64,000 bases of DNA from an uncultured virus (IMG/VR IMGVR_UViG_3300032038_000056) (IMGVR_UViG_3300032038_000056), one strand, 5' to 3'; positions 9,349-57,803 are shown, numbered from the stretch's first letter. The notes: generated from the letters alone by a model not told the origin. Made by a program: numbers and translations.

Positions 9349-9424
9349 AGAATAATAAATAAAAAAAGAGTTTATATAGATATCTTTGAAAAAGGTAATA
9401 TAAGAAATCGTAAGCCCTATTGTA

Positions 9425-10939
9425 TCAATCAAAAGTCAAACGTGTTTGACCGTGCTTTGCCCTCTTCTTTATCAGAGGTTCGTAAGCGGGATTGATCTCG
9501 ATGCCTATCCCGTTAATGTCGTGGTCATAGCAGTATTCCAATACAGTACCAGAACCGCAGAATGGATCCAATACTATACCGCCTTCTGGACAGCACGCAT
9601 CAATCGGCCTCTCCACCAACTTCTTTGGGAACATCGCGACGTGTTCCAGATTGGATCCCGTATTGCATATCGACCAAGTTGTACGGACATTTCTCATTCC
9701 GTCGCTGTTCTTCAGTATATCATCGGTCTCTACGGTCACATCGGTCATACCCTTGTCTATCTCGGAATACTCCTCGGAATCATCGCTGACCTTATCTCTG
9801 ATCAGCAGCCAATCCTCGATAGAGGGATATGAGAATCCGTCATCCGTTCTGAACCAATGCTCGGCTGTCGTAAGCGAGATCTCTGTCCCAGAAACAATCT
9901 CCTTTGGATTGATGCGGGATTTCATAAAAGCGGTGAAGGCCGCCTTATCTGGCAGGTTGTAACGCTTGTATACTACACCGTTCCCCCTGTTCTGGTGCAT
10001 CCCCTGTCTGACGCTCGCCTCCATATCGTCATCCTTCCATTTGGAAGTGTTGTCGAACCATACTGTCCTACAGTTACGGCCTTCGGGATTCCCCCATCTC
10101 TTCCAATTAGGGTCATTGTGCTGTAACTCATAAGCGTTGGATCCGCGTATCACGTTCTTGGTCTCAAGGGTATTATGCCTTGCGCGTTTCGCTCTGGCTA
10201 TGCTCTCTTGCTTGACCTCTTCCAACTGCTGTTTGAAATAGTATTTGGGGTTCTTTACGAAGAAAAAGAACTTCTCAAAATCCACTGTGAACCTGTCCTT
10301 GACGGAACTCGGCATCGCACTGTCCTTCTGCCAGATTATCTCGTTCCTCAGAATCCATCCGTGGTCGGCCATCGCTATTGCGAACCTTGACGGTATCTGG
10401 ACGAGGGTCTTCTGCGGGAACTGGGTGCGGGATAATCCCTCTCTGACCTTTTTCGCCGATATAATGGAATCAAGAGAACGCTGAACGCCTTTCGTGTCTC
10501 CTGTGAATCCGCTGGTCGTAGCGTAGGTATCGCCTAGATTGACCCAACACGCACCTGTCGGTTTGAGCACCCTTTTGACCTCATCGAATATCATCATCAG
10601 ATGGTCGATATACTCCAACGGGGAGGGTTCAAGCCCCAACTGCCCTTTCCACGCACCGCACTTTGAACAATATTGCGTAACGGTAGGGTGGCCTCTGTTA
10701 TTGCCTTCCCCATCCCTGTTCGCACCGACGCTCGCATTGGGATTTACGCCTCCTCTGGCCGACTCCTTGTGATCCGTCCATTCGTGTTCACAATCCGAAT
10801 TACCCCATACCACGGGATCCGTACCGTAATCCCTCAATGCCCAATACGGCGGAGAGGTAACGCATACGTCCACGGATTCATCTGGCATCTCTCTTAGGAC
10901 ATCCAGACAATTCCCTATGATGATCTTCTGTTCGCTCAA
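9425..10939 (-). CDS. DNA N4-C/N6-A methyltransferase (beta class)
   Basis: TSPPY catalytic motif near N-terminus, VLDPFCGSGT SAM motif near C-terminus, WILRNEIIWQK. Confidence 0.9.
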   Translation of the reverse strand: MSEQKIIIGNCLDVLREMPDESVDVCVTSPPYWALRDYGTDPVVWGNSDCEHEWTDHKESARGGVNPNASVGANRDGEGNNRGHPTVTQYCSKCGAWKGQLGLEPSPLEYIDHLMMIFDEVKRVLKPTGACWVNLGDTYATTSGFTGDTKGVQRSLDSIISAKKVREGLSRTQFPQKTLVQIPSRFAIAMADHGWILRNEIIWQKDSAMPSSVKDRFTVDFEKFFFFVKNPKYYFKQQLEEVKQESIARAKRARHNTLETKNVIRGSNAYELQHNDPNWKRWGNPEGRNCRTVWFDNTSKWKDDDMEASVRQGMHQNRGNGVVYKRYNLPDKAAFTAFMKSRINPKEIVSGTEISLTTAEHWFRTDDGFSYPSIEDWLLIRDKVSDDSEEYSEIDKGMTDVTVETDDILKNSDGMRNVRTTWSICNTGSNLEHVAMFPKKLVERPIDACCPEGGIVLDPFCGSGTVLEYCYDHDINGIGIEINPAYEPLIKKRAKHGQTRLTFD

Positions 10940-28666: not shown

Positions 28667-30577
28667 TCACTCATCCTCCACTCTGTTTCTTGCTATCATC
28701 ACTATCACCCCAATCAATATCAACAGAGGGATGATGCGGATCAATTTGGAGACACTGCTGTTGTCTGGAACTCTGTCCATATATTCCACGTCCGATATGT
28801 AGAACCAGCCAGGGATGGAGGTGTGGATCGTTGCGCCATCCAGCCCATAGGATAGCCCTGTGATATTCAGATCGCTGAGGTTCAGAACTTCTGTGATAGA
28901 CGTTCCAGAGAATGCATCGTATACGATTGACTTGATATTCGAGGGAATAACAACCCCTGTTACGGTTTCATTATCCTTCAGCGCAACACCGATATTCGAG
29001 ACGGTCATTCCACCCACGGTAACAGGTATTTGAATAATCCCTCCCGAACCTGTATAGTCTAGGAGTATCGCATATCCCGAATCAAGGATACCATACGCCC
29101 ATTCCCCATCTGTGTACTCTCTGTATGTATGGGAGAATTGAGCGGTATACTCCGAGTCCTCTGTGATCGGTATGATTGTCGGTGACCAGCCTGTGAATGT
29201 ATAGACATATTGAACGGACATTGTTCTGGTCGGTGTAGCACCGTTGTAAACGGGTGTTTCACCTTCAGGTACTTTGTCGGTATCCAGCACAGTACCGTCC
29301 CAGTTCAGCCAAGTTACGAGGTACATGGCTGTCGCTGTGAATTGAGCGGTATATTCGGTGTATCCGCTGATCGGCCCGACAGCGGGACTCCACCCAGAGA
29401 ACTCATATGTGAAAGATTCTGTATCCGCTCTTGTCGGTGTCGATCCGTTGTATGTAGGCGTAGTCCCCTCTGGAACGCTAACATCTGTTTCAAGGACAGT
29501 ACCATTCCAATTTCTCCAAATAACTGTGAATAGGCTCGTTGTAGTGAATTGAGCGGTATATTCTGCATCAGTGGTGACTGGTACAACAGTAGGCGACCAT
29601 CCATCAAAACTGTATCTATATTCTAAGGTTTCTGGTCTGGTAGGTGTAGTTCCGTCATACGTGGGCAGAGTTCCTTCTGGCACATTTGAATCTGTTTCCA
29701 GCACCGTTCCATCCCAGTTCTTCCATACTACGGTGTGCAGTGCGAGTTCCGTATATTGTGCCGTGTATGTGACATTTCCTGTAACCGTGTCGATGGCGGG
29801 GTTCCATCCAGAGAAGGTGTATGCGTATTGGGATGTACTCGGTCTCGTGGGTGTATTTCCATTGTATGAGGGGGTGGATCCGTAAGGCACATTCGAATCT
29901 GTTTCCAGACGTGTTCCGTCCCAATTATTCCACGCTACGGTATAGGTGTTTATTGCGAAATAAGCGGTAAGGGATATATTACCTGTGACTGTGAATGTCC
30001 GTGATGCATTGGTGTCCCCGTCGGACCAGTTCGTGAAATGATAACCCGTGTTCGGTGTGGCGGTTATAGTTGCGGTAGATCCGTTATCATATGTTCCACC
30101 ACCAGATACTGTTCCACCACCTGCTGAATAGACCGAGACTGTGGAAGAGGGTGGAGGGAGAATCGTAAGATAGATGATGCGCTCTATGCGCTCATCGTCC
30201 ATTCCCTCACCCTCATAGGCATATAGCAATATTACTTTAACAGTGCCTGTGGAACTACATGTCCCTACCAACCCATGATTTACTTTAGATAACCCATACG
30301 TTCCATCGGGGTCTACAGTCGATACGTAATAATCTTCATATTCACTAGGATCGCCAGCGTTGGTTATGTTAAAGTATGCGCCAACGCGGGTATAGTACGT
30401 TTGCTCATGCCTTACGGCGTTGAAAAACTCATAGGCCGATCCCTCCCACCGCGTCCACGGGTCCGCCTGTGTTCCGCTACCCGATACTGTCGCCGCGTCC
30501 GAATCATCCGAATCGTACATCATAGCGCATCCTATGAACACGATTCCCAATACAAGTATGAATGGCCAATATCTCAT
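28667..30577 (-). CDS. Adhesin-like protein: signal peptide, divergent InlB-B repeat, four ~70-aa WxNWDGT repeats, BspA-like LRR piece, capsid-type C-terminal helix
   Basis: MRYWPF...SDDSDAA leader; VxWxNWDGTxL...PxYxGxTPTR x4; C-terminal LIRIIPLLILIG. Confidence 0.8.
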   Translation of the reverse strand: MRYWPFILVLGIVFIGCAMMYDSDDSDAATVSGSGTQADPWTRWEGSAYEFFNAVRHEQTYYTRVGAYFNITNAGDPSEYEDYYVSTVDPDGTYGLSKVNHGLVGTCSSTGTVKVILLYAYEGEGMDDERIERIIYLTILPPPSSTVSVYSAGGGTVSGGGTYDNGSTATITATPNTGYHFTNWSDGDTNASRTFTVTGNISLTAYFAINTYTVAWNNWDGTRLETDSNVPYGSTPSYNGNTPTRPSTSQYAYTFSGWNPAIDTVTGNVTYTAQYTELALHTVVWKNWDGTVLETDSNVPEGTLPTYDGTTPTRPETLEYRYSFDGWSPTVVPVTTDAEYTAQFTTTSLFTVIWRNWNGTVLETDVSVPEGTTPTYNGSTPTRADTESFTYEFSGWSPAVGPISGYTEYTAQFTATAMYLVTWLNWDGTVLDTDKVPEGETPVYNGATPTRTMSVQYVYTFTGWSPTIIPITEDSEYTAQFSHTYREYTDGEWAYGILDSGYAILLDYTGSGGIIQIPVTVGGMTVSNIGVALKDNETVTGVVIPSNIKSIVYDAFSGTSITEVLNLSDLNITGLSYGLDGATIHTSIPGWFYISDVEYMDRVPDNSSVSKLIRIIPLLILIGVIVMIARNRVEDE

Positions 30578-31206
30578 ATGCTTTGCCTCCACTCCGCACC
30601 TGTGACGCTCTCATCATCTTTCAGAACTATCATATCAAGTTCATATGCGCTGTCGTTCATATTATCATATGCTGTAAAACCCATCAATCCGCCGATGTAA
30701 TAATTCGTAGTCCTTGGGTCATCCATACGGGTATCACTGCCATTTATGAAAGAGGAATACTCTCCATTGGCATCGGGCATCATGGCATAGACGGAGGAAG
30801 GAAAGGTGTATGTGTCAGATCCGTCTGTAATCTGTGTTCTGATGTTGTTTCTCGATATGCTGAAGTTGTTTCCGAGTGTTCCTGATTGTACGCCATTGTT
30901 CTTTCCGATGTACTGGGCAGTGCCATCTTTGACGAATACAGCAAGATTATGATCTGCCCACAGGATTGTATCATCCCACCCAGATTGAGAATCGTCCCCG
31001 CTTATCGTTATTTTACCATTGATTGAAACAGTGATATTCTTACTGCTGTTCGAGTACGCCATCCGTATCCATCCAGCATCATCATTCTCTTCTACTACAT
31101 TTTTGTATGTAACGGAGTACAATGCAGGAACGAGATTCGCTATCAATACGATTCCCACTATTGCGAACACAATCACCATAGCGATGTGTCTTGTCTGATC
31201 TTCCAT
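30574..31206 (-). CDS. Spike-scaffold protein with only the N-terminal capsid-type helix
   Basis: IVGIVLIANLVPAL; ENDDAGWIRM and PDANGEY motifs like the 1-9 kb family; no C-terminal TM. Confidence 0.7.
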   Translation of the reverse strand: MEDQTRHIAMVIVFAIVGIVLIANLVPALYSVTYKNVVEENDDAGWIRMAYSNSSKNITVSINGKITISGDDSQSGWDDTILWADHNLAVFVKDGTAQYIGKNNGVQSGTLGNNFSISRNNIRTQITDGSDTYTFPSSVYAMMPDANGEYSSFINGSDTRMDDPRTTNYYIGGLMGFTAYDNMNDSAYELDMIVLKDDESVTGAEWRQSI

Positions 31207-31242
31207 AGTATAAATAAGGTGGGAAGAGGTTTATTAATATAT

Positions 31243-32526
31243 TTACCAAGGCCACCAATCGGGCGGGTCCAAGGATAGGTCGATATCCAGCCCGTTTATG
31301 AACGCGGTTATGGTTTGTATCAATGCGATTACCGCCACTATTACCAATAGTTTGGGATTGTGAGCAGCCATAGCCAGTAATGTAGAGTACAAGACTACTG
31401 TGATCACCAAGGATGTGAATACCTGCATTATCGGGGACATAGGATAATCATTCATATTGAACATAAACAGATCCAGAAGGGTGTCCCATATCTCTGAGAG
31501 GTTTATCGGATTGCTTGGAGTGGTATATGCGCTCATATCAGTAGTGACTGATGAGACCATAATTGACCACCAGCCGTAGTTGTAACAGTCCTCTATAGAC
31601 CATCCTTGAGAGGTATATGCGGGATTTATCCTGATGTAGATGTTCATGTCGCAGCCATTGAAATTCATCACAAACTTTGCAGTGTTGTTAATAGAATTGA
31701 ATGCAGTGACGATTTCGCTTGCTGTAATGTAATCTACTCCAGAATCACTCCCTGTCAGCACCAACTGCCCGCTGATTCCTGAATTTCCAATGAAGTTATA
31801 CCAGATCAATGACAGGCTTGTGTTCACGGCGTTTGTCCTGATGGCGGATCCGTCTGTACCTCTGATATAGTAGTCAGAAAGAGGCTGGAAGGCATATCTA
31901 TAGCCAGTATATTCATAGTAGAAATATTGGTTGGTACTGCGTTTGAGTGAACTCGTGAAGAAGATATCAGACTGTTGATTGACATCCATCGTTACATATG
32001 TATACAGATCCCCGTCTACCATTCCGTCTTGAGTGACGTTACCCTCTAAGCCAAGGGAATCAAGTGTTTGGCCACCGTGTGTTTGTGATGTAAGACCATA
32101 TCTATACACATGCGATCCGTCTTTTTCATCTTGATATAACACTCTGTATCTTGAATCGTATGTGACTGTAGGGTATTCAGGGTGTTGTTCTTGATACTCT
32201 TCCGAGACATTATATTGACTGGGACTGTAATTGGTAATCAATGATCCATAAAGCCACCCATCATCAGTGTATCTATATGATCCTCCTGTGTAGGGTGTGT
32301 AGATTCCCGTGAGTGTCCACGGCATTTCTGTATTGGATCCCTGTCCTTCCGTGAATGAGAAGTAGGAGTTGGATAAATCCCGTAGTGTATCTTCACTCGC
32401 GTAGGTATTCAGAAAATCACCTGTCCCCATCTCCTTGGGGAAGAACATACCTATCATGACAGGCATGAGGAATATGACGATTATAGCAACGATAATCCAT
32501 CTTTGAATAAAGGTCTGTTCACCCAC
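31243..32526 (-). CDS. Membrane-anchored virion/structural protein (427 aa)
   Basis: N-terminal TM, Tyr/Ser/Thr-rich ectodomain, two C-terminal TMs. Confidence 0.65.
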   Translation of the reverse strand: MGEQTFIQRWIIVAIIVIFLMPVMIGMFFPKEMGTGDFLNTYASEDTLRDLSNSYFSFTEGQGSNTEMPWTLTGIYTPYTGGSYRYTDDGWLYGSLITNYSPSQYNVSEEYQEQHPEYPTVTYDSRYRVLYQDEKDGSHVYRYGLTSQTHGGQTLDSLGLEGNVTQDGMVDGDLYTYVTMDVNQQSDIFFTSSLKRSTNQYFYYEYTGYRYAFQPLSDYYIRGTDGSAIRTNAVNTSLSLIWYNFIGNSGISGQLVLTGSDSGVDYITASEIVTAFNSINNTAKFVMNFNGCDMNIYIRINPAYTSQGWSIEDCYNYGWWSIMVSSVTTDMSAYTTPSNPINLSEIWDTLLDLFMFNMNDYPMSPIMQVFTSLVITVVLYSTLLAMAAHNPKLLVIVAVIALIQTITAFINGLDIDLSLDPPDWWPW

Positions 32527-32535
32527 TATCTCACC

Positions 32536-32808
32536 TCAGTCTCTTCCCGATATGGTCTTTCCAGCAACCATCGCAAGTCCTACGACAATAACTATGATCA
32601 TTACAATCAGCAAATCTCCATTAAGGACACCAAGTGATGCAAAGGCCAACGTTATCGGTATGGATATGACCATCACAGCCGTAAGATTCCTTGTGATAGC
32701 AAATGCAAAGATGAGGAATACGGCATAAAGTATAAGCCCCGCGATTTGCATATTATTATCAAAAAAAGTTTCCGCCAAGATCTCTTGAACCATTGAAAGG
32801 GTTATCAT
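32536..32808 (-). CDS. Small multi-TM protein, probable minor virion component
   Basis: 90 aa, mostly hydrophobic. Confidence 0.65.
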   Translation of the reverse strand: MITLSMVQEILAETFFDNNMQIAGLILYAVFLIFAFAITRNLTAVMVISIPITLAFASLGVLNGDLLIVMIIVIVVGLAMVAGKTISGRD

Positions 32809-34832
32809 GTTGTACCTCCAATCACAATCAGTATGATTTCGCTAACGATCAATACGGCAATGCTCATCATATCAGCATATCCCATTTTGTATATTAAAAA
32901 ACCACCCAATAGTATGAACCCTGCCATAAATATAACGATGAGGTTCAAATTGAAAGCATATGCTGGATTCCAATCCCTTTCGGTAACTGTCTTCCTGACA
33001 ATTTCATAAAATCCAGCACTGAAATACCATGTTCCAGCAAGAGATATGCTTGTATTTGACTCAAGGATCTGTGAACTCCCTTTGTCTGTTGAAAGGGTAA
33101 TCTGCCACTGGTTCTCCCCTATGTTTTCATAGAATATCTGTAGGTCAGGGATCGCTAACGTATTGCCGTTTACAGTTATCGTACCGTCCGTAATCGGGAA
33201 TGTAGAATTGCCCAACGTTATTGACGTGCCTATTGTTGCGACCTTTGAGAGTGAAACCATAAACTTAGGGTAGTTTGGCCAGAAGTCTGTTATAGTGATA
33301 TGGGGGTTGATCATCACTACCCCATATGTATTGAAGAATACCGTCGTGTTGGTTACTTGGAATTTGAAGGAATTATTTGCAGACCATGTAATTGTATTCA
33401 GACTGCCTTTTGTAATCTGGCCGATTAATACGGATGTTTCGGAAAGTGCATAATTGTTAAAATTATTCCATGCGGTTATCGGAATTACGGTCATTTCACC
33501 ATTTATGTTATCTATGTTTAATTGTATCTGTGGCCATGTTCCAATATCTATAGGTGTCCCTCCATTCAAAGAGACATATGTCCTTCCAGAGATTCTGCTG
33601 ACTGTGAATGTATCAGTAGCACTTGATCCATAGTATCTTATAACGCCTGTATCCTCACAATCCCCATTATCTGTAAAGGTCATACTGGACTGATCCCATA
33701 CAGAGAATACGATACTAGTCACACCATTCTGTTGGCCATTATTCCAGACAACTTCCTCTGAATTTCTTACGCTGACCCCATAACGAGTGTCGATGTAGTC
33801 TGTGATGGTTTCGGCGAAATAATTTACTGCAAAGTGAGGGGTATCCACACCAAGCGATTCCGTTGTTCTCCATACGCTGTCCGTATATCCATTTTCTTCA
33901 CCCCATCCTGTTGCGTCTCTGCCTAAACTTATCGTCGCAAGCGGTGTGCCGTACACCACCTTGTAATTAGTGGGGTTCACCCCAGAATAGATAGGTACGT
34001 CATTCACTGAAATAGTGCATGTATTTTTGGAAGGAGTGTATAGAATTTCTGTATTGAACTCAGAATCCTCTCCCATTGAGTATATCGTATCATATGAATA
34101 CCATGATGAGGGGTATTGGGAGGGAGATGCATTTGAGGGGATGATCATAATGTTATTTGATAAGTAATACGTAACTGTAGTACGTGTATCATGATTGTAT
34201 GGGTATTCAATATCTTTTGAAAGGATTGTGGCGGGTATGTTTATTTGTACTGTTGCGGGGGTAGTCCCTAATACAGTAGTTCCATCAGTTACGCATTCAG
34301 TAAGGATGGAGGACAAATTTTTCATATAGGTAACAGGGCCACCGAAGATAAATTCAGCCGTTCCTGGGCTTCCGACGTATGACGACTCGATGTATAAGGG
34401 CATATTTGGTTCGCTAGGGTCATAGTAACTGTAATTCTCGCTTATTGCGTTCCATCCTGGATAACGCGCCAGTGATGTAAATTCAGTAGCACTTGTCGCA
34501 AAAGAAGAAGGCCCTATAAGGGTGGGGCTTGTTGCTTGATCCAATTTATGACTTATAGGATAGTTGTTGGTATATCCCACACTTTTAAAAGTGATCGGAT
34601 ATTGGTTTGTAACCGTGTTGTTTGTATACCCGTTATAATTCTTGGAGGGGCTGTAATCAGAATAGGACTTTTCTCTGTCCGCTGTGAATCCTCCTGTAAT
34701 GTCCGCAACGTATTCTGGCAACTCTTTAGTAACATCCTTCGATTCAATGTTTGTCACTACACACAGCATTACGGATGAGATCAATGCAAGAACTACTACA
34801 ACGACTCCTGCCATACCTCTGTCGAATCCCAT
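32805..34832 (-). CDS. Large membrane-anchored virion/adsorption protein (675 aa)
   Basis: N-terminal TM, N/T/S-rich beta ectodomain with many NxS/T sequons, two C-terminal TMs; downstream of MCP genes. Confidence 0.65.
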   Translation of the reverse strand: MGFDRGMAGVVVVVLALISSVMLCVVTNIESKDVTKELPEYVADITGGFTADREKSYSDYSPSKNYNGYTNNTVTNQYPITFKSVGYTNNYPISHKLDQATSPTLIGPSSFATSATEFTSLARYPGWNAISENYSYYDPSEPNMPLYIESSYVGSPGTAEFIFGGPVTYMKNLSSILTECVTDGTTVLGTTPATVQINIPATILSKDIEYPYNHDTRTTVTYYLSNNIMIIPSNASPSQYPSSWYSYDTIYSMGEDSEFNTEILYTPSKNTCTISVNDVPIYSGVNPTNYKVVYGTPLATISLGRDATGWGEENGYTDSVWRTTESLGVDTPHFAVNYFAETITDYIDTRYGVSVRNSEEVVWNNGQQNGVTSIVFSVWDQSSMTFTDNGDCEDTGVIRYYGSSATDTFTVSRISGRTYVSLNGGTPIDIGTWPQIQLNIDNINGEMTVIPITAWNNFNNYALSETSVLIGQITKGSLNTITWSANNSFKFQVTNTTVFFNTYGVVMINPHITITDFWPNYPKFMVSLSKVATIGTSITLGNSTFPITDGTITVNGNTLAIPDLQIFYENIGENQWQITLSTDKGSSQILESNTSISLAGTWYFSAGFYEIVRKTVTERDWNPAYAFNLNLIVIFMAGFILLGGFLIYKMGYADMMSIAVLIVSEIILIVIGGTT

Positions 34833-34910
34833 ACGGTTGTAATCCGCCTAGAAATATATTAATATTATTTATTTTAAAAATAGGATTCTCTACTTGAGGA
34901 AGGGGTTTAC

Positions 34911-34924
34911 GGGGGTATACCCCC
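34911..34924. terminator. Palindrome/hairpin downstream of MCP copy 2
   Basis: gggggtataccccc followed on minus strand by AAACCCCTT. Confidence 0.45.
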
Positions 34925-34935
34925 CATATTCGCGC

Positions 34936-35145
34936 TTAGTTCTTCTTGACGAAGAGTGCAATCACCGCGATAATGATTCCGACAATGACAAGAAGCGGAA
35001 TGATGTTCAGCATCGCGTTGATAGAATCAGCGTTCGCAATTCCAGTGACCTGGTTGCTGGCGATGATAGGGACAAGCACGCTGACTGCAATCAGAACCAC
35101 AACGACGATTGCGATAACGGATCCAGTGAACTTTGAAACATCCAT
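34936..35145 (-). CDS. Major capsid protein, spindle-shaped-virus (VP1-like) two-helix type, copy 2
   Basis: MDVSKFTGSVIAIVVVVLIAVSVLVPIIASNQ...INAMLNIIPLLVIVGIIIAVIALFVKKN; resembles recalled SSV1 VP1 LIGIVLLPVI...ATLLNLVPLF. Confidence 0.8.
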   Translation of the reverse strand: MDVSKFTGSVIAIVVVVLIAVSVLVPIIASNQVTGIANADSINAMLNIIPLLVIVGIIIAVIALFVKKN

Positions 35146-35170
35146 TTCTATCTCTCCTGATACATTTTTG

Positions 35171-35192
35171 CCAAGGGGTGTTACCCCCTTGG
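35171..35192. terminator. 8-bp stem hairpin between the two MCP genes
   Basis: ccaagggg-tgttac-ccccttgg. Confidence 0.45.
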
Positions 35193-35214
35193 GCTTTCGT
35201 TCGACAAACTGGGC

Positions 35215-35442
35215 TTAGTTCCTCTTGCTGATGAAGAGTGCGATGACTGCGATGATGATACCAACCACTACGAGGAGCGGGATGATGTTCAGCATCGCGT
35301 TGATCGATGCAGCGTTCGCAATAGAACCCTCTCCCGTAGTGGGGACCTGGTTGCTTGCGATGATCGGAACGAGGACAGTAACTCCGATGATGACAACGAC
35401 AACAACGGAAATGACTGCGCCCGTAAACTTCTGTACGTCCAT
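35215..35442 (-). CDS. Major capsid protein, spindle-shaped-virus (VP1-like) two-helix type, copy 1
   Basis: 75 aa close paralog of 34936-35145; strong GGAGGTG RBS; C-ending codon bias suggesting high expression. Confidence 0.8.
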   Translation of the reverse strand: MDVQKFTGAVISVVVVVIIGVTVLVPIIASNQVPTTGEGSIANAASINAMLNIIPLLVVVGIIIAVIALFISKRN

Positions 35443-35468
35443 TACCTTTACACCTCCTTTTCAGTATA

Positions 35469-35711
35469 TCAATCTCTATCACGCAACATCTTGATTATGG
35501 ATATAATCAGAGAAATAATCACGATGGTGACCACAACGGAAAGCAGACCCTGAAGGGCCGTTGCTCCGCCGAAGACATCATATGCATTTCCTGTAATATC
35601 CCCAACCGTTTCAGCCGCAATAGGAAGGAAAGCCCTAACAATCAAAATTAACCCAATCAGAGCCGCGATTATGACTCCGATTATCTTGTCAATCTGACTA
35701 TCGCCATCCAT
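35469..35711 (-). CDS. Minor capsid protein (divergent hairpin, VP3-like)
   Basis: LIGLILIVRAFLPIA...LQGLLSVVVTIVIISLII. Confidence 0.65.
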   Translation of the reverse strand: MDGDSQIDKIIGVIIAALIGLILIVRAFLPIAAETVGDITGNAYDVFGGATALQGLLSVVVTIVIISLIISIIKMLRDRD

Positions 35712-35831
35712 AGTAGATAATCATAATATGTTTTATTTAAGACATTTTATTGTAAATACGTTTGTATGTTAGCATAAATGTATTTATTTTGGACTGAAAA
35801 AGAATAAAAAATAAGGGGTTTGTAGATTTTT

Positions 35832-36278
35832 TCACATCTTTTTGACTTTTCTGTACTGAGTGACCGCTTTGACGATGTTCTTCTTGGTGAAACCCCCTTC
35901 TCCCTCAAGATCGGTGTACTTCGCACCCTTGTCGTCGGTCTTGTTGAGGTACACGTCCTTCTCTTCCTCGGTGAGCATTTGGAACAGGCGGTCGCGTCCT
36001 CCCTCGTTCTGAAGATCCTTCAGAATAGCGGGGTCGCACAATATGAACTCAAGATGTATCTGAGGGTTCTTGTAATCTATATCGTGCCAATCATCGACCC
36101 CGCATTCCTCCATCCAGCGGGGCATGAACTTCGCTCTGGCGCGGTTCGCTATCTCTTGGTTCTTCGCATCGTCGATATCATGGAACATCTCTTTGGCCCG
36201 TTTGAACCATTCCCTATGGGACACGTGCGTTCCTTCGATACCGCTCTCTTCCAATTTCTGTCTGTGTTTCTTTCCCAT
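35832..36278 (-). CDS. Hypothetical charged protein
   Basis: 148 aa, last gene of ATPase operon. Confidence 0.65.
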   Translation of the reverse strand: MGKKHRQKLEESGIEGTHVSHREWFKRAKEMFHDIDDAKNQEIANRARAKFMPRWMEECGVDDWHDIDYKNPQIHLEFILCDPAILKDLQNEGGRDRLFQMLTEEEKDVYLNKTDDKGAKYTDLEGEGGFTKKNIVKAVTQYRKVKKM

Positions 36279-36279
36279 T

Positions 36280-36696
36280 TCAACTCATCCCTGACATCAC
36301 TACATATACCACTATGACCGCAATCACTCCTACGATGAGGGCTGCGCTTAGTTTCTTCTTGTCCAGAAGTCCCTGCAGACCGTCCCATTTCAGAGCGAGT
36401 GCGTCATTGATCGCATTGGACTCCAACCACAGGTTGAGGTCTATCGCACTGAATCCGTAATCCGATGTGTTATAGTGCTTCTCGACACCGACCTCATCTA
36501 TTGCGAACTCGTTGTGTTTCCCGTCTATCCTTACCGCTTCGACTGGCAGTTCCCTTCTGGTGGTCTCTTCGACCACTATCTTGTACCCGCCCGTTTCCTC
36601 ATCTCTCTGGATATGTTTCAGGAGAACGACGTTCTTGAAGGCCATCCTCCACCATCTTCCGAGTTTCTGTGTGAACTTAGGTTTCTCCAACGGCAT
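36280..36696 (-). CDS. C-terminally anchored membrane protein
   Basis: 138 aa, C-terminal TM. Confidence 0.65.
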   Translation of the reverse strand: MPLEKPKFTQKLGRWWRMAFKNVVLLKHIQRDEETGGYKIVVEETTRRELPVEAVRIDGKHNEFAIDEVGVEKHYNTSDYGFSAIDLNLWLESNAINDALALKWDGLQGLLDKKKLSAALIVGVIAVIVVYVVMSGMS

Positions 36697-36699
36697 ATC

Positions 36700-37125
36700 T
36701 TACAACCCCAGATTTGGTGCTAGGAAAGCGTAGATCAATACTGCTCCCACGACTATTCCTGTGATTCCTACTTTGCTGTATAGCCACGACCATGCGTTAC
36801 CGAGCGTGCTTGAGAACCAGATCTTAGGTTTACCCAGCACGCCGTGCGAACGCATCATCTTGTGTCTGTCTACATCCGACAGCAGTCTGTCCATCGAATA
36901 ATCCAGACCCATCGTATCGTAGGGAACGACATCATTCTCTCTGAATATGATACCCGATTCAGACGCAACTTCCAGACCGTCGTAGTCGAAGATCCTCACC
37001 CTCGACATGGCGTTAGGGAATATACGGTACAGTTGATTCCTTGTCTTGAAGAAATGCAGTCCGACCTGTCTTTTGTTCGGTACGCATATCTCCACACGAT
37101 TCTCGCCAGTGATTATGACCATCAT
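36700..37125 (-). CDS. C-terminally anchored membrane protein
   Basis: 141 aa, C-terminal TM. Confidence 0.65.
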   Translation of the reverse strand: MMVIITGENRVEICVPNKRQVGLHFFKTRNQLYRIFPNAMSRVRIFDYDGLEVASESGIIFRENDVVPYDTMGLDYSMDRLLSDVDRHKMMRSHGVLGKPKIWFSSTLGNAWSWLYSKVGITGIVVGAVLIYAFLAPNLGL

Positions 37126-37430
37126 ACTATCCTCTCTCCGAGTTCTTCTTTTTCATAGGGGGTAGGCTCTTTCCAGATCCTCCACTCGTCTGCGAAATGG
37201 TTGAGTAGGAATATCGGCAGCATCACGGCAAATGCCATATAGACTCCCGCACCCATCGGATCCTCATATTCTGGGTATGCGGACAGTATGTATGCGATGA
37301 TAAGGCATCCTAGTGTCGCCATAGCATAAAATACTATATAGAGGGCATACCTCTTCCATATCTTATCGCGTGCCTCTTTTCTTTTGCACGCTTCTATCTC
37401 AGTCAATATCAATTCTCTTGCATATCTCAT
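37122..37430 (-). CDS. 2-TM membrane protein, paralog of 37427-37735
   Basis: ILTEIEACKR ... PTPYEKEELGERIV. Confidence 0.65.
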   Translation of the reverse strand: MRYARELILTEIEACKRKEARDKIWKRYALYIVFYAMATLGCLIIAYILSAYPEYEDPMGAGVYMAFAVMLPIFLLNHFADEWRIWKEPTPYEKEELGERIV

Positions 37431-37735
37431 ATTATCCTGTCTCCGAGTTCAGCCATCTCTCCTGGCGTAGGGGGACTCCACGGACCGATGTCCAGATCTC
37501 TCATACATATTGCTATCACAGGTATCATTATGCCCATTAACGCCATAGGATCCGAGGAGTCGGCCAGAGTCCATATCCCTATCTCTATGAGTGCGAAGAG
37601 CACCCATGCAATAGCCGTGATAACACCTAATACGATACAATATTTTTTCCAATATTCTTCCTTTTCCTTGTAGATCTCTACGCGCTTGGACGCTTCGATC
37701 TCAGTCAGAATATACATCCTGCTCTTCAGCATCAT
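37427..37735 (-). CDS. 2-TM membrane protein, paralog of 37122-37430
   Basis: ILTEIEASKR ... PTPGEMAELGDRII. Confidence 0.65.
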   Translation of the reverse strand: MMLKSRMYILTEIEASKRVEIYKEKEEYWKKYCIVLGVITAIAWVLFALIEIGIWTLADSSDPMALMGIMIPVIAICMRDLDIGPWSPPTPGEMAELGDRII

Positions 37736-38525
37736 CTTCCTCCTTATCGGATTTCTTGTCTTTCTTTTTGCCACCAGGGGTCTCGCCCTTGATGAAGTCC
37801 ATAATCAGTTCGTCCTGTTTGCTGAACTTGAGTTTTTGGTACTCCTCATTCCAATCCTTCTCCAGAGGGGGGTACACGCCAGCCGCGAACAGATACCAGT
37901 ACGGCTCATTCGATCTGGAATACTCGGAACGTTTCGCAACCGAGAACTCAAGGAATCCCCTTTTGGGAAGACCTTTGATCGGTGCTTTATCAGGGCATCT
38001 CAGTTTGTAATCGACATGTGTGGACCTTACCGCTTTGTTCAAGTCGAAGATGCTTGGCACACAGAGGATTGTCGTCCACCCCCTTGACCTCATCGTATTG
38101 AACAGGATCAGCATATTCTTGTCGTCGGAACGCATCGAATTGCGTGAGTTCAGCGATACTACAGCCTCGTCGAATAGGGATATCGGCGACACCTCTTCTC
38201 CTTTGTTCGCACGGTCGAGTTTCCTTTTCAGATCCTCCAGCGAGTAGATGTAGTTGTCAGTGATACTCCATTTGGGATCTATCGTCTTAGCCAGCCTTAT
38301 GGCAGCCGAGGACTTTCCTGAACCTGTCCCTCCCTCTATGACGATGACGTTCTGATACCCGTCCTTGACACGTGTCTTCAGTTCTTTCACGAACAGGTCC
38401 AGCGTGTCGGAGCATACCAGAATCGTCATGGTATGTTTCTTGTACCAGCCGATGACGTGCTGGCGTTTTCCTTTCCATCTGGGATTGTAATAAGGCTTAC
38501 CAGGATATAGTTTCCGTCTCCCCAT
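37701..38525 (-). CDS. P-loop ATPase, candidate genome packaging/virion extrusion ATPase
   Basis: Walker A GGTGSGKS, Walker B SLFDEA; located in virion morphogenesis operon. Confidence 0.8.
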   Translation of the reverse strand: MGRRKLYPGKPYYNPRWKGKRQHVIGWYKKHTMTILVCSDTLDLFVKELKTRVKDGYQNVIVIEGGTGSGKSSAAIRLAKTIDPKWSITDNYIYSLEDLKRKLDRANKGEEVSPISLFDEAVVSLNSRNSMRSDDKNMLILFNTMRSRGWTTILCVPSIFDLNKAVRSTHVDYKLRCPDKAPIKGLPKRGFLEFSVAKRSEYSRSNEPYWYLFAAGVYPPLEKDWNEEYQKLKFSKQDELIMDFIKGETPGGKKKDKKSDKEEDDAEEQDVYSD

Positions 38526-38908
38526 CAGTCCTCCGTCGCTGGCATAAATGTAGACTCAGCACCCGACGGTACGCCGAATGCACCAGAGTTCGCTCCGAGC
38601 GACTTGACGATCTCTTCACGTCCTCTACCGCCGTATGATACGGCCAGACGCATTACCTGATTGATGCGTCCGCTCACATATGAGGAATGGAATGTGGAGG
38701 TCATCGTATAACTGATCGCACACGCATGAGAGATGATGGGTGTGGTGCGCGTCATCAGTTCGAGGGGGTCATCCCCTGTCTCTGTAAGTATGGCCAGTGC
38801 TTTGTCGTAAGCGGTATCCCCAAGTTCCCCGCCGTTCTCTGGGGGGAGTATAGGGTCGCTCATGAGTTCGTCATAGGCGGATTCTTCGGTAGATTCTTTT
38901 TTGGGCAT
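38525..38908 (-). CDS. Hypothetical protein
   Basis: 127 aa, TGATG coupling to ATPase. Confidence 0.65.
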   Translation of the reverse strand: MPKKESTEESAYDELMSDPILPPENGGELGDTAYDKALAILTETGDDPLELMTRTTPIISHACAISYTMTSTFHSSYVSGRINQVMRLAVSYGGRGREEIVKSLGANSGAFGVPSGAESTFMPATED

Positions 38909-38911
38909 CTC

Positions 38912-39151
38912 TCACTCCTTCATCAGTCCGACCACACTATGACCCAGAATGAATATGGAGGGGAACAAGGGCAACAGACCGATGGTGTCCTCTCTCAATG
39001 ATTCGTCCGTGATGACACAGCATATCGAACAGATAGCGAATAGGATGGTAATCATTCTGATCTCGTTCCCCCTCTCACTCTTATTAAGAACGAGTTGCAG
39101 GAGGTAAATCCCGATCATAAGGAGGAAAAACAGCAGTGTGAAATCATCCAT
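38912..39151 (-). CDS. Small 3-TM membrane protein
   Basis: 79 aa hydrophobic; TATA-like element ~39175. Confidence 0.6.
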   Translation of the reverse strand: MDDFTLLFFLLMIGIYLLQLVLNKSERGNEIRMITILFAICSICCVITDESLREDTIGLLPLFPSIFILGHSVVGLMKE

Positions 39152-39630
39152 ATTGGACTTAACGGCTTTTTCAGATATAAGGATTATGTCGGTGTATCTT
39201 TTTTAGTATTACGCTATCACGGAATCGTCCGTAAAGGACGTGTGGGCCGTTTCGTCCTTTTTCACATCTATCCATATAAGCACACGTTTTTCGCGTGCGG
39301 GGAATGTGCCAACAGGGGAAAGGCTTTCTTTTTTGTGTACCATTATCTTCGCATTTCGACCTATAAAATCGAAATAAAAAAAATAAAATCCTTATATTTT
39401 TGATAGCGGATCGATAGATTAAGGCGGACGGAGCTTTTCAGCAATCCGTTTTTTACGGAAATATAGATTTCGTATCTTGACGTAAATGTATTTATATGTG
39501 AAAATGTATAATGACTTCAAGAACAGCATTCTGGCATTGGCTGTTCTGCACCTCAGATCGGACGATCTGGGCGGGGGGAGGATGGGCCCCCCGCCAAAAA
39601 CCCCCATTGACGATTAACGGAGTAGGTAGG

Positions 39631-40326
39631 ATGGCTGAGAGCGACGAGGAGATTACGCCCAAGGTCGTGCTGTATGCAAGGGTGTCTACGACGGACAGAG
39701 GTCAGGATCCGTATACACAGATGGAGATTCTGAGGAAGTCCGCACAGATACGCGGGTTCGAGGTAGTGGGGGAGTTTGTGGATTATGCGTCTGGAAAGGA
39801 CGCTAACAGGCCACAATGGAAAGAGGTAATGGATATGGCCACCCACGGCAAGATAGACGGGATTATGGCCCTCAGAGTGGACAGGGTTATGAGATCCGTC
39901 AAGCACCTTACCTCTACGATAGAAACCCTGTCTACGTGCAAACGTGCAAGCAAAGGTAAGGGAGTATCGCTCATCTTCAACGATTTTGACTTTGACCCCA
40001 ATAACCCCAACAGCAAACTCGTGTTCACGTTCCTGTCCGCTATTGCGGAATGGGAAAGGGAGATCATATCGACGAGAACGAAAGAGGGTATGCAACACCG
40101 TATCTCACAAGGTCAGAAGTTCGGTAAGAAGGTCAGAGAGGACATCCCTCTGAGGAAGATTGCCTTGATGCGGATCCGTGGGGATTCGTGGAACTCTATC
40201 GCTAAATCGTTAGGGATTCCCCGCACGACCATCCTTGATCGCCGTAAGCAGATTGAGGACGAGGTAGAGGTGTGCAGAAAGGACGGGATAGGGGTGTCGG
40301 GGTTGTCGGATGAGGTAGGGGTCTAA
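39631..40326 (+). CDS. Small serine recombinase (resolvase/invertase) with C-terminal HTH
   Basis: VLYARVST, SGKD.NRP, RVDR..RS, AIAEWEREIIS.RT.EG, SWNSIAKSLGIPRTTI; start moved to MAESD after GGTAGG. Confidence 0.9.
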   Translation: MAESDEEITPKVVLYARVSTTDRGQDPYTQMEILRKSAQIRGFEVVGEFVDYASGKDANRPQWKEVMDMATHGKIDGIMALRVDRVMRSVKHLTSTIETLSTCKRASKGKGVSLIFNDFDFDPNNPNSKLVFTFLSAIAEWEREIISTRTKEGMQHRISQGQKFGKKVREDIPLRKIALMRIRGDSWNSIAKSLGIPRTTILDRRKQIEDEVEVCRKDGIGVSGLSDEVGV

Positions 40327-45956: not shown

Positions 45957-46346
45957 TCAGCCCTCCGTATCGAGGAGGGTGCTTATGCGCTTATTGACTG
46001 CGACATACAGTTTGTCGTATCCCGCCGTGAGCATCCCCCATGCAGATACAGTGAACAGGAGGAAGAGCAGAGGGATGAACAGATCACGGAACTCGTCTTC
46101 CACATAGGTTATCACACCAGCCCAATCCAGCACCCATACGCATCCAGCGATCAGACCCCATACGGCCAGCCAGGTGTAGAATATGACGGCAAAACAGTTC
46201 ATCCTCATCGTGCGGTATCTCTCTATATCCATCTTTATCTTTACGCACTGTGCGAGGTCGTAACCTTCCAGCATGGGTTCGATTATGTTCCTCTCTTCTC
46301 TGAATCTCATTGTTCCACCTTCGGGTAGTATCTTTTCTTTATCCAA
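45957..46346 (-). CDS. 2-TM membrane protein
   Basis: Two hydrophobic helices; start uncertain. Confidence 0.55.
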   Translation of the reverse strand: MDKEKILPEGGTMRFREERNIIEPMLEGYDLAQCVKIKMDIERYRTMRMNCFAVIFYTWLAVWGLIAGCVWVLDWAGVITYVEDEFRDLFIPLLFLLFTVSAWGMLTAGYDKLYVAVNKRISTLLDTEG

Positions 46347-46579
46347 TCAATGTTGCATAACGCACACAGCCAAGCGGTCATCGGAGGGAATACCATAAAG
46401 GCTATCAGCAGGAACCATTCGTTCCAGTCCTCCACGGGAACTATGCCGTAATGGTCCAATGCACCCAGTATGCCGAAGTACAGCATCAGTCCGATTGTGA
46501 ACCCGATGACGAAATACATCCCGACAAGTCCATGCGCCTTCCATTCGTTATTCATCCCATCACTTCCTGAATACAGCAC
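46307..46579 (-). CDS. 2-TM membrane protein
   Basis: Two helices; LDHYGIVPVED resembles neighbour's LDWAGVITYVED. Confidence 0.55.
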   Translation of the reverse strand: MLYSGSDGMNNEWKAHGLVGMYFVIGFTIGLMLYFGILGALDHYGIVPVEDWNEWFLLIAFMVFPPMTAWLCALCNIDWIKKRYYPKVEQ

Positions 46580-46862: not shown

Positions 46863-46871
46863 CTTTACCTC

Positions 46872-47168: not shown

Positions 47169-47169
47169 C

Positions 47170-47713: not shown

Positions 47714-47714
47714 A

Positions 47715-57802: not shown

Positions 57803-57803
57803 A

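Follow-up and report, generated by a model that had tools for sequence, protein, structure and literature searches.

The stretch of DNA that we analyzed (hereafter, the window) is 64 kb long, and positions 28667-39151 hold a block of 16 co-directional genes, all on the minus strand, 12 of which encode predicted transmembrane (TM) segments. The block includes three two-helix hydrophobic proteins of 69-80 aa, a P-loop ATPase, four large membrane-anchored ectodomain proteins (675, 427, 210, and 641 aa), and several small membrane proteins. An earlier note had described large TM-anchored ectodomain proteins, many small membrane proteins, and a P-loop ATPase at this locus, and all of these were indeed found there. 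The genes are given below in the order of transcription.

38912..39151, minus strand: 79-aa protein that opens the block, containing three hydrophobic segments, with same-position homologues in L003, L004, and L005
38525..38908, minus strand: 127-aa soluble protein of unassigned function, always immediately upstream of the ATPase, with 35-42% identical homologues in six of six related loci
37701..38525, minus strand: P-loop ATPase, 274 aa, of the His1 ORF16/SSV1 B251 type by hhalign, Pfam, and PHROG
37427..37774, minus strand: 115-aa two-TM protein, tandem paralogue of the 102-aa gene (LTEIEA.KR motif in both)
37122..37430, minus strand: 102-aa two-TM protein, paralogue of the 115-aa protein (ORF and predicted TM segments)
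36700..37125, minus strand: 141-aa conserved core protein with a C-terminal TM anchor (residues 115-141), 35-43% identity in six of six loci
36280..36696, minus strand: 138-aa protein with a C-terminal TM anchor, aligning with part of 311-584 aa proteins in relatives
35832..36278, minus strand: 148-aa soluble conserved protein of unassigned function, directly upstream of the coat genes and kept in related loci
35469..35711, minus strand: putative coat hairpin of type B (80 aa), a divergent paralogue whose role would be VP3-like; family HMM score 64.3 bits
35215..35442, minus strand: putative coat hairpin of type A (75 aa) and candidate for the major capsid protein (AlphaFold model, Foldseek, PHROG)
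34936..35145, minus strand: putative coat hairpin of type A' (69 aa), a second, tandem copy of the 75-aa gene; family HMM score 64.6 bits
32805..34832, minus strand: 675-aa candidate receptor-binding or tail protein (predicted model and Foldseek)
32536..32808, minus strand: 90-aa protein with two TM segments, a conserved companion of the 427-aa gene (35% identical in G001, 44% in L018)
31243..32526, minus strand: 427-aa core protein, candidate tail or adaptor component (homologues in relatives)
30574..31206, minus strand: 210-aa protein with an N-terminal helix like coat helix 1 only (family HMM E 0.011)
28667..30592, minus strand: 641-aa adhesin-like protein (Pfam Flg_new_2 E 1.4e-16)

The block gene order was found again in six related loci: the 79-aa TM protein, the 127-aa protein, the ATPase, the 141-, 138-, and 148-aa proteins, the hairpin proteins, a large ectodomain protein, the 90-aa TM protein, and the 427-aa protein. 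One of these loci belongs to a complete genome of 75,709 bp with a 107-bp terminal repeat (G001), whose whole contig keeps the order, and the order is also present in a complete genome of 18,519 bp with a 141-bp terminal repeat (L018). Because of this recurrence in six loci and in complete genomes of both sizes, the arrangement is not due to chance, and complete relatives of 18.5 kb and 75.7 kb carry the same core module. The 427-aa protein, which had no Pfam or PHROG match, is 36% identical in G001, 40% in L018, and 24% in L019, and in both complete genomes its homologue adjoins that of the 90-aa protein. The 127-aa protein had no Pfam or PHROG match and no PDB sequence match below E 0.3, and the 148-aa protein had no PDB sequence match below E 0.8. 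For the 115-aa protein, no homologue was found in the related loci (its alignment consists of one sequence); since its annotated start overlaps the 3' end of the ATPase gene, the true start may lie further in.

Each of the three small hairpin proteins contains two hydrophobic helices. The 75-aa and 69-aa proteins are 80% identical, their duplication being marked by a 100-nt DNA repeat (D4), and the 80-aa protein is 22% identical to the 75-aa one. The locus thus encodes three paralogues, two of them nearly identical and in tandem and the third divergent, in agreement with the earlier proposal of a VP1-like major capsid protein (MCP) pair and a VP3-like paralog. The AlphaFold model of the 75-aa protein (pLDDT 91.7, helices 3-30 and 44-74) has as its best Foldseek match among 350,542 PDB chains the VP1 protein of SSV19 (7XDI_A; TM 0.57/0.61 over 69 columns), with an E-value of only 0.5, and the protein also matches phrog_11172, "virion structural protein" (E 0.0092).

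Profile searches identified the same relatives. At E <= 1e-3, a 7-sequence hairpin profile built from the window and related loci retrieved 342 clusters out of 1.84 billion representatives. Pfam His1_capsid is matched by 49 of 97 family members (best E 1.5e-17), and the next family by 14. When the 97-sequence profile was compared with 177,635 PDB sequences, SSV19 VP1 (7XDI_A) was the sole match below 0.01 (E 1.3e-5; next 0.017). A near-identical family HMM selected VP21 from 90 His1 ORFs (E 4.8e-12, the best profile match of the family; next 0.11) and VP1 from 75 SSV1 ORFs (E 3e-9), with VP3 second (0.049). In hhalign, VP21 and VP1 each reached a probability of 92%, and none of 18 other small membrane proteins exceeded 1.8%; part of this signal is generic to hydrophobic hairpins, since reversed SSV1 VP1 and VP3 still reached 55% and 32%. 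The superfamily (Pfam PF06281, PF25665) consists of small two-helix proteins of about 70-90 aa with a short loop, and the window hairpins, at 69, 75, and 80 aa, have this form and show profile-level homology to experimentally defined coat proteins. Their own scores fall below the Pfam gathering cut-off: the best, for the 69-aa protein against His1_capsid, is 9.1 bits (E 1.7; cut-off 27 bits), and the 75-aa and 80-aa proteins have no His1_capsid or VP1_VP3 row. Superfamily membership therefore rests on profiles and intermediates. Orthologues of the 80-aa protein in G001, L005, and L006 score 24.8, 21.4, and 16.8 bits to His1_capsid, below the same cut-off. Overall, these comparisons support placing the hairpin proteins in the SSV1 VP1/His1 VP21 coat-protein superfamily.

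The ATPase points in the same direction. Its Walker A motif (GGTGSGKS) and residues D119/E120 are invariant across 19 homologues, and it matches phrog_5484 (E 1.3e-13). In hhalign, the 19-sequence profile aligned to His1 ORF16 (probability 95%, E 3.5e-8) and to SSV1 B251 (90%, E 1.6e-6, 178 columns), which by profile comparison assigns it to the type conserved in spindle-shaped viruses. It is also weakly Zot-like (Pfam Zot 25.3 bits, above the cut-off of 20.3) and matches phrog_1675, "protein I of M13" (E 9.6e-4), as would be expected if the module built an inovirus-like extruded filament with a Zot/pI-type assembly ATPase and a pVIII-like coat of small hydrophobic proteins. Against such a filament stand the long alignment to B251, the two-helix coat candidates that match VP1 and VP21, and a genome of at least 64 kb with a D5-type primase-helicase, an SNF2 helicase, and a RecE-like exonuclease, for which no rolling-circle Rep was detected in the window with Pfam or PHROGs. 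We regard an inovirus as extremely unlikely.

Two of the large block proteins carry three hydrophobic helices each. In the 675-aa protein, an N-terminal helix is followed by tandem lectin-like beta-sandwich domains and two C-terminal hydrophobic helices; the predicted model (pLDDT 84.3, 27 homologues) resembled laminin LG, neurexin LNS, galectin, and sialidase lectin domains in Foldseek (best E 2.1e-7), showing, at the level of the model, one membrane-anchored protein with a tandem lectin-like ectodomain. A relative of roughly 95% identity has other sequence in place of its coding region. The 427-aa protein has one N-terminal and two C-terminal hydrophobic helices. In SSV19, tail proteins are described as fixed to the shell via three-helix bundles (PMC9351363), a likeness to the 675-aa and 427-aa proteins in helix count. 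These two proteins might dock at one pole of the shell as receptor-binding or adaptor parts.

A module rich in membrane proteins and with an NTPase could instead belong to a pleolipovirus-like enveloped pleomorphic virus or provirus, with the small hydrophobic proteins in the envelope and the 675-aa protein as a VP4-type fusogen; such proviruses, equipped with VP4-like fusogens, have been reported from Methanomassiliicoccales (PMC10919331). HRPV-1, the sole pleolipovirus compared, gave little resemblance: in hhalign, the 675-aa profile scored 0.3% against VP4, the hairpin family 0.1% against VP3, and the ATPase only 9.5% against VP8, compared with 95% for His1 and 90% for SSV1. The family HMM found nothing below E 0.04 among 52 HRPV-1 ORFs, and the 45 fold matches listed for the 675-aa protein were lectin-type domains, with no spike of that group among them. 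Judged against HRPV-1, the module lacks the VP4-like fusogen and VP3-like membrane protein that define Pleolipoviridae, and we consider this origin improbable.

Next, we turned to the genome as a whole. A 74,567-bp contig, which extends about 10 kb beyond the window, is recorded as carrying the 641-aa protein, and near-identical ATPases (same 90%-identity cluster) occur on contigs of up to 94,087 bp. The best matches of the window replication genes are PHROG families (D5-type primase-helicase, 1.2e-67; SNF2 helicase, 9.9e-84; RecE-like exonuclease, 1e-30), which bears out the earlier description of a tailed-phage-like replication module; no polymerase was found in the window proteins with Pfam or PHROGs. 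The same note had reported no terminase, portal, or HK97 capsid in the 64 kb, and none was detected in 89 window proteins with Pfam or in 88 with PHROGs. A tailed HK97-type virus would then have to carry its head and tail genes in the 10 kb beyond the window, with the hairpins as accessory membrane proteins such as holins, to which weak PHROG matches exist (E 0.39-0.52). However, 10 kb is too short for a head, tail, and packaging module, and G001, which has about 22 proteins in common with the window, yielded no TerL_ATPase or Phage_capsid match in six frames and no head, tail, or portal family (Pfam) in the 90 ORFs scanned out of its 94 with 90 aa or more. A 1041-aa window protein does match two PHROG "tail protein" families (E 1.7e-14 and 2e-7), in its RCC1-repeat part; this reflects a shared repeat domain, and a tail module on these grounds was ruled out. 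The HK97-fold capsid, large terminase, and portal that characterize Caudoviricetes are thus undetected in both the window and its complete relative, leaving a tailed virus a very remote prospect.

A recombinase gene borders the block and is transcribed divergently from it.

39511..40326, plus strand: small serine recombinase, 271 aa, candidate integrase or invertase (Pfam Resolvase E 6.8e-32)

Homologues of the recombinase adjoin the module in L002 (44%) and G001 (27%). Its presence would also suit a non-viral mobile element, either conjugative/integrative or a vesicle-forming plasmid, with the hairpins as pilin-like or membrane-remodelling proteins. A high-GC island on a 1.8-Mb methanogen contig encodes homologues of the ATPase (26%) and the serine recombinase (37%) and has no coat-protein match, and Pfam T4SS_pilin has weak matches to four of the 97 family members (best E 8.2e-4). 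Yet His1_capsid is matched by 49 members against these four, the terminal repeats of the complete relatives are typical of assembled circular virus genomes, and no VirB4, coupling protein, or relaxase was found in the 89 window proteins or in 90 proteins of the complete relative. The earlier note had named a conjugative element as the alternative to look for; with Pfam, the expected combination of VirB4-type ATPase, coupling protein, relaxase, and pilin was not recovered, and a non-viral element appears quite unlikely.

Among known viruses, the module resembles Fuselloviridae in its two-helix hydrophobic coat protein with adjacent paralogues (as in SSV1 and SSV19) and its B251-related ATPase. 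It differs in genome size (at least 64 kb, against 15.5 kb in SSV1), in the lack of the VP1 N-terminal propeptide on the window coat proteins, in its mesophilic gut habitat, and in the extra proteins with coat helices described below. The window has a serine recombinase, whereas SSV1 marks its integration site inside ORF D-335, which we take to be a tyrosine integrase. Besides the MCP and ATPase, nine module proteins (the 210-aa and 675-aa proteins not among them) had no SSV1 or His1 match above 54% probability. Fuselloviridae have circular genomes of a few tens of kb at most and a wider shared core, and the 64-kb window falls outside this definition. Halspiviridae are closest in their coat protein, VP21, and in ORF16, whose record annotates a C-terminal HTH like that on the ATPase of the 18.5-kb relative. 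In contrast, His1 has a linear genome of 14.5 kb with end repeats and a type B DNA polymerase. No protein-primed type B polymerase like that of the family was found in the window with Pfam or PHROGs, and where the family has inverted terminal repeats, those of G001 and L018 are direct.

Parallels in genome size are found in viruses of ANME-1 archaea. All spindle-shaped viruses are said to have MCPs that are hydrophobic and alpha-helical, and the ANME-1 Itzamnaviridae and Tepeuviridae (Laso-Perez et al. 2023), predicted to be spindle-type, are described with large genomes (72.6 kb in tepeuvirus PBV144), paired MCP genes, a structural and an enzymatic arm, and one core common to two genome-size classes (PMC9894754). 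The 18.5-kb and 75.7-kb relatives also share one core, a likeness by description only, and the ANME-1 viruses differ in having deep-sea hydrothermal methanotroph hosts rather than a ruminant-gut habitat. Spindle-shaped viruses of methanogens are likewise known according to a review (PMC10848233), which credits Medvedeva et al. 2023 (Nat Microbiol 8:2170) with reporting them, and Methanosarcina spindle-shaped virus 1 (MSSV1, Eurekaviridae) has two copies of the spindle-type coat protein (PMC12451623). The earlier characterization of the genome as unusually large therefore holds for its size (64 kb, on a 74,567-bp contig) and not as a precedent, given the 72.6-kb ANME-1 virus (PMC9894754), and the accompanying background, of an MCP type confined to genomes of a few tens of kb and mostly to Sulfolobales, is out of date in light of the published ANME-1 and methanogen viruses (PMC9894754, PMC10848233). 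Phage-collection records did not match the module.

Taken together, we consider it highly probable that 28667-39151 is the virion-morphogenesis module of a large dsDNA virus of ruminant-gut archaea (at least 64 kb, probably about 75 kb) with a coat of the SSV1-VP1/His1-VP21 type. The hairpins would insert in the host membrane and assemble, as in SSV19, into the helical strands of a lemon-shaped, size-adjustable shell, with the 80-aa paralogue as a minor coat protein. This spindle shape is inferred by analogy. The ATPase may power assembly or genome loading; a role in replication initiation is equally open.

The newest point concerns coat helices on much larger proteins, partly outside the block. 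At least four, one of them weak, have such helices at their ends:

6307..9432, minus strand: 1041-aa putative hairpin-display protein (family HMM E 9.2e-9, residues 32-66 and 1004-1040)
4134..6242, minus strand: 702-aa protein, probably of the hairpin-display kind but weakly supported (E 0.087 to the family HMM)
2215..4056, minus strand: 613-aa putative hairpin-display protein containing Gly-rich linkers (residues 1-36 and 574-612 match the family HMM, E 1.8e-11)
1116..2090, minus strand: 324-aa putative hairpin-display protein (family HMM E 3.4e-8, residues 2-30 and 291-320)

Lectin, RCC1, and Flg_new domains lie between these ends. In the 1041-aa protein, coat helix 1 is followed by Flg_new repeats and an RCC1 propeller (Pfam RCC1-like 1.9e-62, Flg_new 6.7e-26) and then by coat helix 2; the 613-aa protein weakly matches Pfam Beta-prism_lec (23.1 bits, below the 25-bit cut-off), and the ends of the 702-aa protein show the motifs ...LSALVPGL and ...LLPLFIIVGV. 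Across 454 six-frame window ORFs, the eight best family-HMM matches (E <= 0.011) were the three hairpins, three large proteins whose two termini both matched and in the correct order, and two with a match at a single terminus; neither of the TM-anchored proteins of 675 and 427 aa gave a match. Residues 1-31 of the 210-aa protein align to HMM positions 1-32 (...IVLIANLVPALYS). The 641-aa protein has a signal-like N-terminus with DSDDSDAA, a Flg_new_2 domain with repeats, and a C-terminal helix resembling coat helix 2 (residues 608-635, i-E 1.9e-4; C-terminus ...IRIIPLLILIGVIV). Beyond the window, 56 of the best 150 library matches of the hairpin profile exceed 150 aa, and 42 of these 56 have a hydrophobic-Pro motif at both ends.

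Judging by their coat-helix ends, these large proteins look like a capsid-anchored display system. Together with the half-anchored 641-aa and 210-aa proteins, they could co-assemble with the coat protein, in which case lectin, RCC1, and Flg_new domains would decorate the particle and serve its attachment in the gut. We put forward tentatively, with slightly less than even confidence, a broader reading in which coat helices are a universal docking module for exchangeable adhesins, and one size-adjustable shell and core serves genomes from 18.5 to >75 kb. Ectodomains placed between two coat helices, or joined to one, would be woven into the flexible spindle shell. If so, exchangeable lectin, RCC1, and Flg_new adhesins would cover the whole particle surface, not just a tail, and a single lineage of ruminant-gut archaeal viruses would use the same core module across this size range.

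Methanomassiliicoccales, proposed in the earlier note, would be a plausible host. According to a paper that cites it (PMC10673518), the compendium of Medvedeva et al. 2023 describes Flg_new proteins from viruses of gut Methanomassiliicoccales; this compendium may already list the window lineage. A search with the "SDDSDAA" leader returned only six homologues. Few ORFs end in TAG (5 of the 73 with 100 aa or more, whereas TAG makes up 20.5% of stop triplets in all frames), a trait not confined to pyrrolysine users. Two ruminant-gut metatranscriptome libraries yielded contigs over the coat genes, which do not prove transcription: one of 782 nt with 20-21 differences, and one of 503 nt that covers 35194-35696 with none. 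In a gut DNA run, a 15-kb contig aligns to 34934-39151 with 188 differences.

The block at 28667-39151 is a genuine spindle-virus-type (VP1/VP21) morphogenesis module, carried in a ruminant-gut genome of about 75 kb. It comprises 16 genes that run uninterrupted on the minus strand, and 12 of the 16 products carry predicted hydrophobic segments. A divergent small serine recombinase (39511-40326; Pfam Resolvase, 6.8e-32) marks the upstream border, while four further small membrane-protein genes lie downstream, followed by an SNF2 helicase on the opposite strand. Every element observed in the earlier note (among them the hairpins, the ATPase and the membrane-anchored proteins) was correct. The ATPase lies upstream of the three coat genes:

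37701-38525, minus strand: P-loop ATPase, 274 aa
35469-35711, minus strand: divergent hairpin paralogue, 80 aa (22% identity)
35215-35442, minus strand: type A coat hairpin, 75 aa, in tandem with the 69-aa copy (80% identical)
34936-35145, minus strand: type A tandem copy, 69 aa (80% identical to the 75-aa protein)

Proteins of 675, 90, 427, 210 and 641 aa are encoded 3' of the coat genes. Short G+C-rich inverted repeats, aagggggtaacaccccttgg and ggggggtataccccc, follow both type A genes (35165-35200 and 34910-34935, minus strand), and an A+T-rich stretch lies ahead of the coat genes; the repeats may act as terminator or RNA-stabilising hairpins and the A+T-rich stretch as a strong promoter. 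Scans of the window found no tRNA, Rfam family or long inverted repeat, and its ends carry no terminal repeat.

Searches with single sequences revealed little about the hairpins. They had no Pfam match at E 0.01, a PHROG search returned one "virion structural protein" (E 0.0092), and tblastn against 50,697 phage records left the 75-aa protein, the ATPase and the module unmatched, as did near and distant DNA searches. A profile of seven sequences, from the window and two related loci, was searched against 1.84 billion representatives and recovered 342 clusters with E <= 1e-3. From the best 150 of these clusters, 94 short hits were combined with the three window proteins into a family of 97 sequences. 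Pfam His1_capsid was matched by 49 of the 97 (best 1.5e-17), and the runner-up family by 14. Against 177,635 PDB sequences, the sole significant match of the 97-sequence profile was 7XDI chain A, the VP1 coat protein of the fusellovirus SSV19 (E 1.3e-5; next 0.017).

A closely similar HMM of 96 sequences was run on all six-frame ORFs of reference viruses. VP21 headed the hits in His1 (90 ORFs; 4.8e-12, next 0.11), and VP1 those in the fusellovirus SSV1 (75 ORFs; 3e-9), with VP3 second at 0.049. Profile comparison, suggested in the earlier note as a check on the major capsid protein (MCP), bore out the coat identity: hhalign gave VP21 and VP1 a probability of 92% each, and no more than 1.8% to any of 18 further small membrane proteins from the window, His1 and SSV1. 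Part of this score is generic to hydrophobic hairpins, because reversed SSV1 VP1 and VP3 still scored 55% and 32%. AlphaFold predicted two helices for the 75-aa protein (pLDDT 91.7), and Foldseek of this model against 350,542 chains ranked 7XDI_A first, but at E 0.5. None of the window's own three hairpins reached Pfam cut-offs; it is by profile similarity, and not as curated Pfam family members, that we place them in the VP1/VP21 coat superfamily.

The ATPase, the second target of the suggested profile check, is of the His1 ORF16/SSV1 B251 type. With a 19-sequence profile, hhalign gave His1 ORF16 95% (E 3.5e-8) and SSV1 B251 90% (E 1.6e-6, 178 columns). The Pfam Zot cut-off was weakly passed (25.3 bits); an inovirus-like filament is disfavoured by the B251 alignment and by the gene content of the window. 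A pleolipovirus-like virus is likewise disfavoured: the ATPase profile gave 9.5% against pleolipovirus VP8, the 675-aa profile showed no similarity to VP4 (0.3%), and the coat-family HMM found nothing below 0.04 among the 52 ORFs of the pleolipovirus HRPV-1. According to ICTV text, MCP and ATPase form the minimum set shared inside one spindle-virus family (PMC12451623). Nine other module proteins, compared by profile with 36 SSV1 and His1 proteins, reached 54% at best; judged from these comparisons, the overlap with described families appears confined to the coat protein and the ATPase.

Scanning with the ATPase profile recovered four IMG/VR contigs (46-76 kb) and two contigs from metagenome-assembled genomes (MAGs); scanning viral contigs with a single protein gave no match. 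All six related loci keep the block's gene order. One relative, G001, is a complete genome of 75,709 bp (107-bp direct terminal repeat; CheckV completeness 100%) that contains the coat-gene triplet and has about 22 proteins in common with the window, including the D5-type primase-helicase (40% identity), SNF2 helicase (38%), RecE-like exonuclease (31%), ATPase (42%) and 427-aa protein (36%). A tailed virus is disfavoured by this genome, in which TerL and HK97 capsid were unmatched in six frames and head, tail and portal families were absent from the 90 ORFs scanned (of 94 of at least 90 aa). The possibility of a conjugative element or plasmid was tested by Pfam scans of the coat family and of G001, and is also disfavoured.

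The large genome claimed in the earlier note is real, since a complete relative measures 75.7 kb, the window's 641-aa protein is recorded on a contig of 74,567 bp, and ATPases of the same 90%-identity cluster occur on contigs of up to 94,087 bp. A far smaller relative, L018 (18,519 bp), looks complete from its 141-bp direct terminal repeat. It carries the core seen in the window: three coat genes, a homologue of the 427-aa protein (40% identity) with the 90-aa partner, an ATPase bearing a C-terminal HTH, and a Flg_new adhesin. The same core module was seen on a contig of 11,655 bp, and many further ATPase homologues on contigs of 11-13 kb.

The core module is portable over a four-fold range of genome size. 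This recalls the spindle-type viruses of ANME-1, for which two itzamnavirus size classes, structural and enzymatic arms, and one genome of 72.6 kb are described (PMC9894754). The premise that this coat type is limited to small viruses of Sulfolobales is outdated by that 72.6-kb virus. Spindle-type viruses with large genomes, and others that infect methanogens, have already been published, and the lineage itself may have been catalogued in earlier literature. With it, the spindle-type viruses would reach into the ruminant gut and to genomes four to five times as large as those of fuselloviruses. Its complete relatives of 18.5 and 75.7 kb, built on one core, provide a natural experiment on the scaling of a spindle shell with genome length. 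Separately, a high-GC island at about 1,157,000-1,173,000 of a 1.8-Mb methanogen-order contig encodes an ATPase (26% identical) and a serine recombinase (37% identical) with no coat-protein match, and may be a different integrated element with the same two genes.

The most interesting part of the finding is a set of large proteins that we term display proteins. The coat-family HMM matches them in two pieces, its first half aligning with the N-terminal helix and its second half with the C-terminal helix:

2215-4056: display protein, 613 aa (E 1.8e-11)
6307-9432: display protein, 1041 aa (E 9.2e-9)
1116-2090: display protein, 324 aa (E 3.4e-8)
4134-6242: probable display protein, 702 aa (weak, E 0.087)

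Their ends carry the V/L-P-I/V and I-P-L...VG motifs of the small hairpins, often with Gly-rich linkers, and the helices flank either a lectin-like domain or repeats of the RCC1 and Flg_new types. These matches do not reflect generic hydrophobicity, since the TM-anchored 675-aa and 427-aa proteins were unmatched by the same HMM. Long forms made up 56 of the best 150 library clusters, and 42 of the 56 had the hydrophobic-Pro motif at both ends. In the adjacent pair at 28667-31206, the 641-aa protein has the second coat helix only (i-E 1.9e-4) and a signal-like leader, SDD(S/A)DAAT, and its 210-aa neighbour the first helix only (E 0.011). The equivalent pair in G001 (46083-50785) comprises proteins of 233 aa (helix 1 only) and 1334 aa (helix 2 only, leader, BspA-type LRRs). 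In such pairs, two chains may each supply half of a single, split hairpin. The literature searched, with Medvedeva 2023 outside its coverage, holds no description of coat helices as ends of display proteins. If present in the particle, these proteins would provide a naturally modular presentation of attachment domains.

The 675-aa protein has 27 homologues, and its model (pLDDT 84.3) starts with one helix, continues as a largely beta ectodomain and ends in two helices. Foldseek matched laminin LG, neurexin LNS, galectin and sialidase lectin domains (best E 2.1e-7); the low TM-scores are what a chain of several domains would be expected to give. Based on this model, we read it as a putative carbohydrate-binding attachment protein. 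Like the 427-aa protein, it has three hydrophobic helices, a suggestive, possible parallel to the three-helix bundles that fix the SSV19 tailspike and adaptor to the shell (PMC9351363).

A gut-metagenome contig (run X3) matches 34934-39151 with 188 differences and is about 95% identical to the window from the ATPase to the coat genes. In it, 3206 unrelated letters stand in place of 31924-34934, a stretch that holds the genes for the 675-aa and 90-aa proteins as well as part of the 427-aa gene. This fits a variable host-recognition cassette. Within 29202-34934 of the comparison, 30147-30527 and 31216-31880 were also replaced by unrelated sequence of similar length. The replaced stretches point to mosaic exchange in ectodomain genes and suggest that host or mucus specificity evolves there.

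Close relatives occur in animal gut samples, in one gut-metagenome DNA contig and two metatranscriptome libraries. Metatranscriptome contigs from sheep gut and bovine gut cover the coat genes, one of 782 nt (20-21 differences) and one of 503 nt (no difference); as contigs from RNA libraries, they are no proof of transcription. Sequencing runs were compared only where the stretch is covered, and 20 of the 24 listed, with a small word share only, were left out as evidence.

To our knowledge, the VP1/VP21 coat family is known only from archaeal viruses, and an archaeal host follows from it. TAG closes 5 of 73 ORFs, against a 20.5% TAG share among stop triplets. Archaeal Flg_new proteins are reported from host-associated Methanomassiliicoccales, Methanimicrococcus and viruses of gut Methanomassiliicoccales (PMC9723798, PMC10673518). 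On this circumstantial evidence (Flg_new and rare TAG), the Methanomassiliicoccales host proposed in the earlier note is a tentative assignment, somewhat short of even odds. A search with the 641-aa leader returned six proteins.

The two MAG contigs are labelled Methanomicrobiales and Acutalibacteraceae (Firmicutes); these labels reflect binning only, as each bin holds two related viral contigs of this group with no host flank. The Methanomicrobiales-labelled MAG contains mcrA; no spacer-like sequence in it matched its own viral contig. Searched at order level, the ATPase profile found, with seed genomes counted, 4 of 261 genomes in the methanogen-MAG order and 2 of 401 in the bacterial-MAG order, too few to decide. 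Gut methanogens bear on how much methane ruminants release, and only a small number of their viruses have been characterised.

Elsewhere in the window, five DNA methyltransferase genes (two N6_N4, one C5, one EcoRI-type and one PHROG-only) lie within 9425-19055 and 44490-45326 alongside a GmrSD_N/HNH nuclease and an RNA ligase; together they make up a heavy anti-restriction load. A dispersed 35-nt direct repeat, D5, occurs in the ORFan-rich right arm at 44074, 45342, 60157 and 63164 (69-80% identity to the reference copy). Seven small ORFs of 92-129 aa between 57470 and 62782 have dissimilar bodies and a common C-terminal end:

57470-57841, minus strand: PFGL-tailed ORF
58132-58473, minus strand: PFGL-tailed ORF
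58800-59189, minus strand: PFGL-tailed ORF
59546-59836, minus strand: PFGL-tailed ORF
61233-61568, minus strand: PFGL-tailed ORF
62192-62470, minus strand: PFGL-tailed ORF
62480-62782, minus strand: PFGL-tailed ORF

Six of the seven correspond to DNA repeat D1. In all of them a Lys-rich stretch is followed by (H/A/L)PFGL as the extreme C-terminus, which, from the sequences, looks like a common C-terminal tag.
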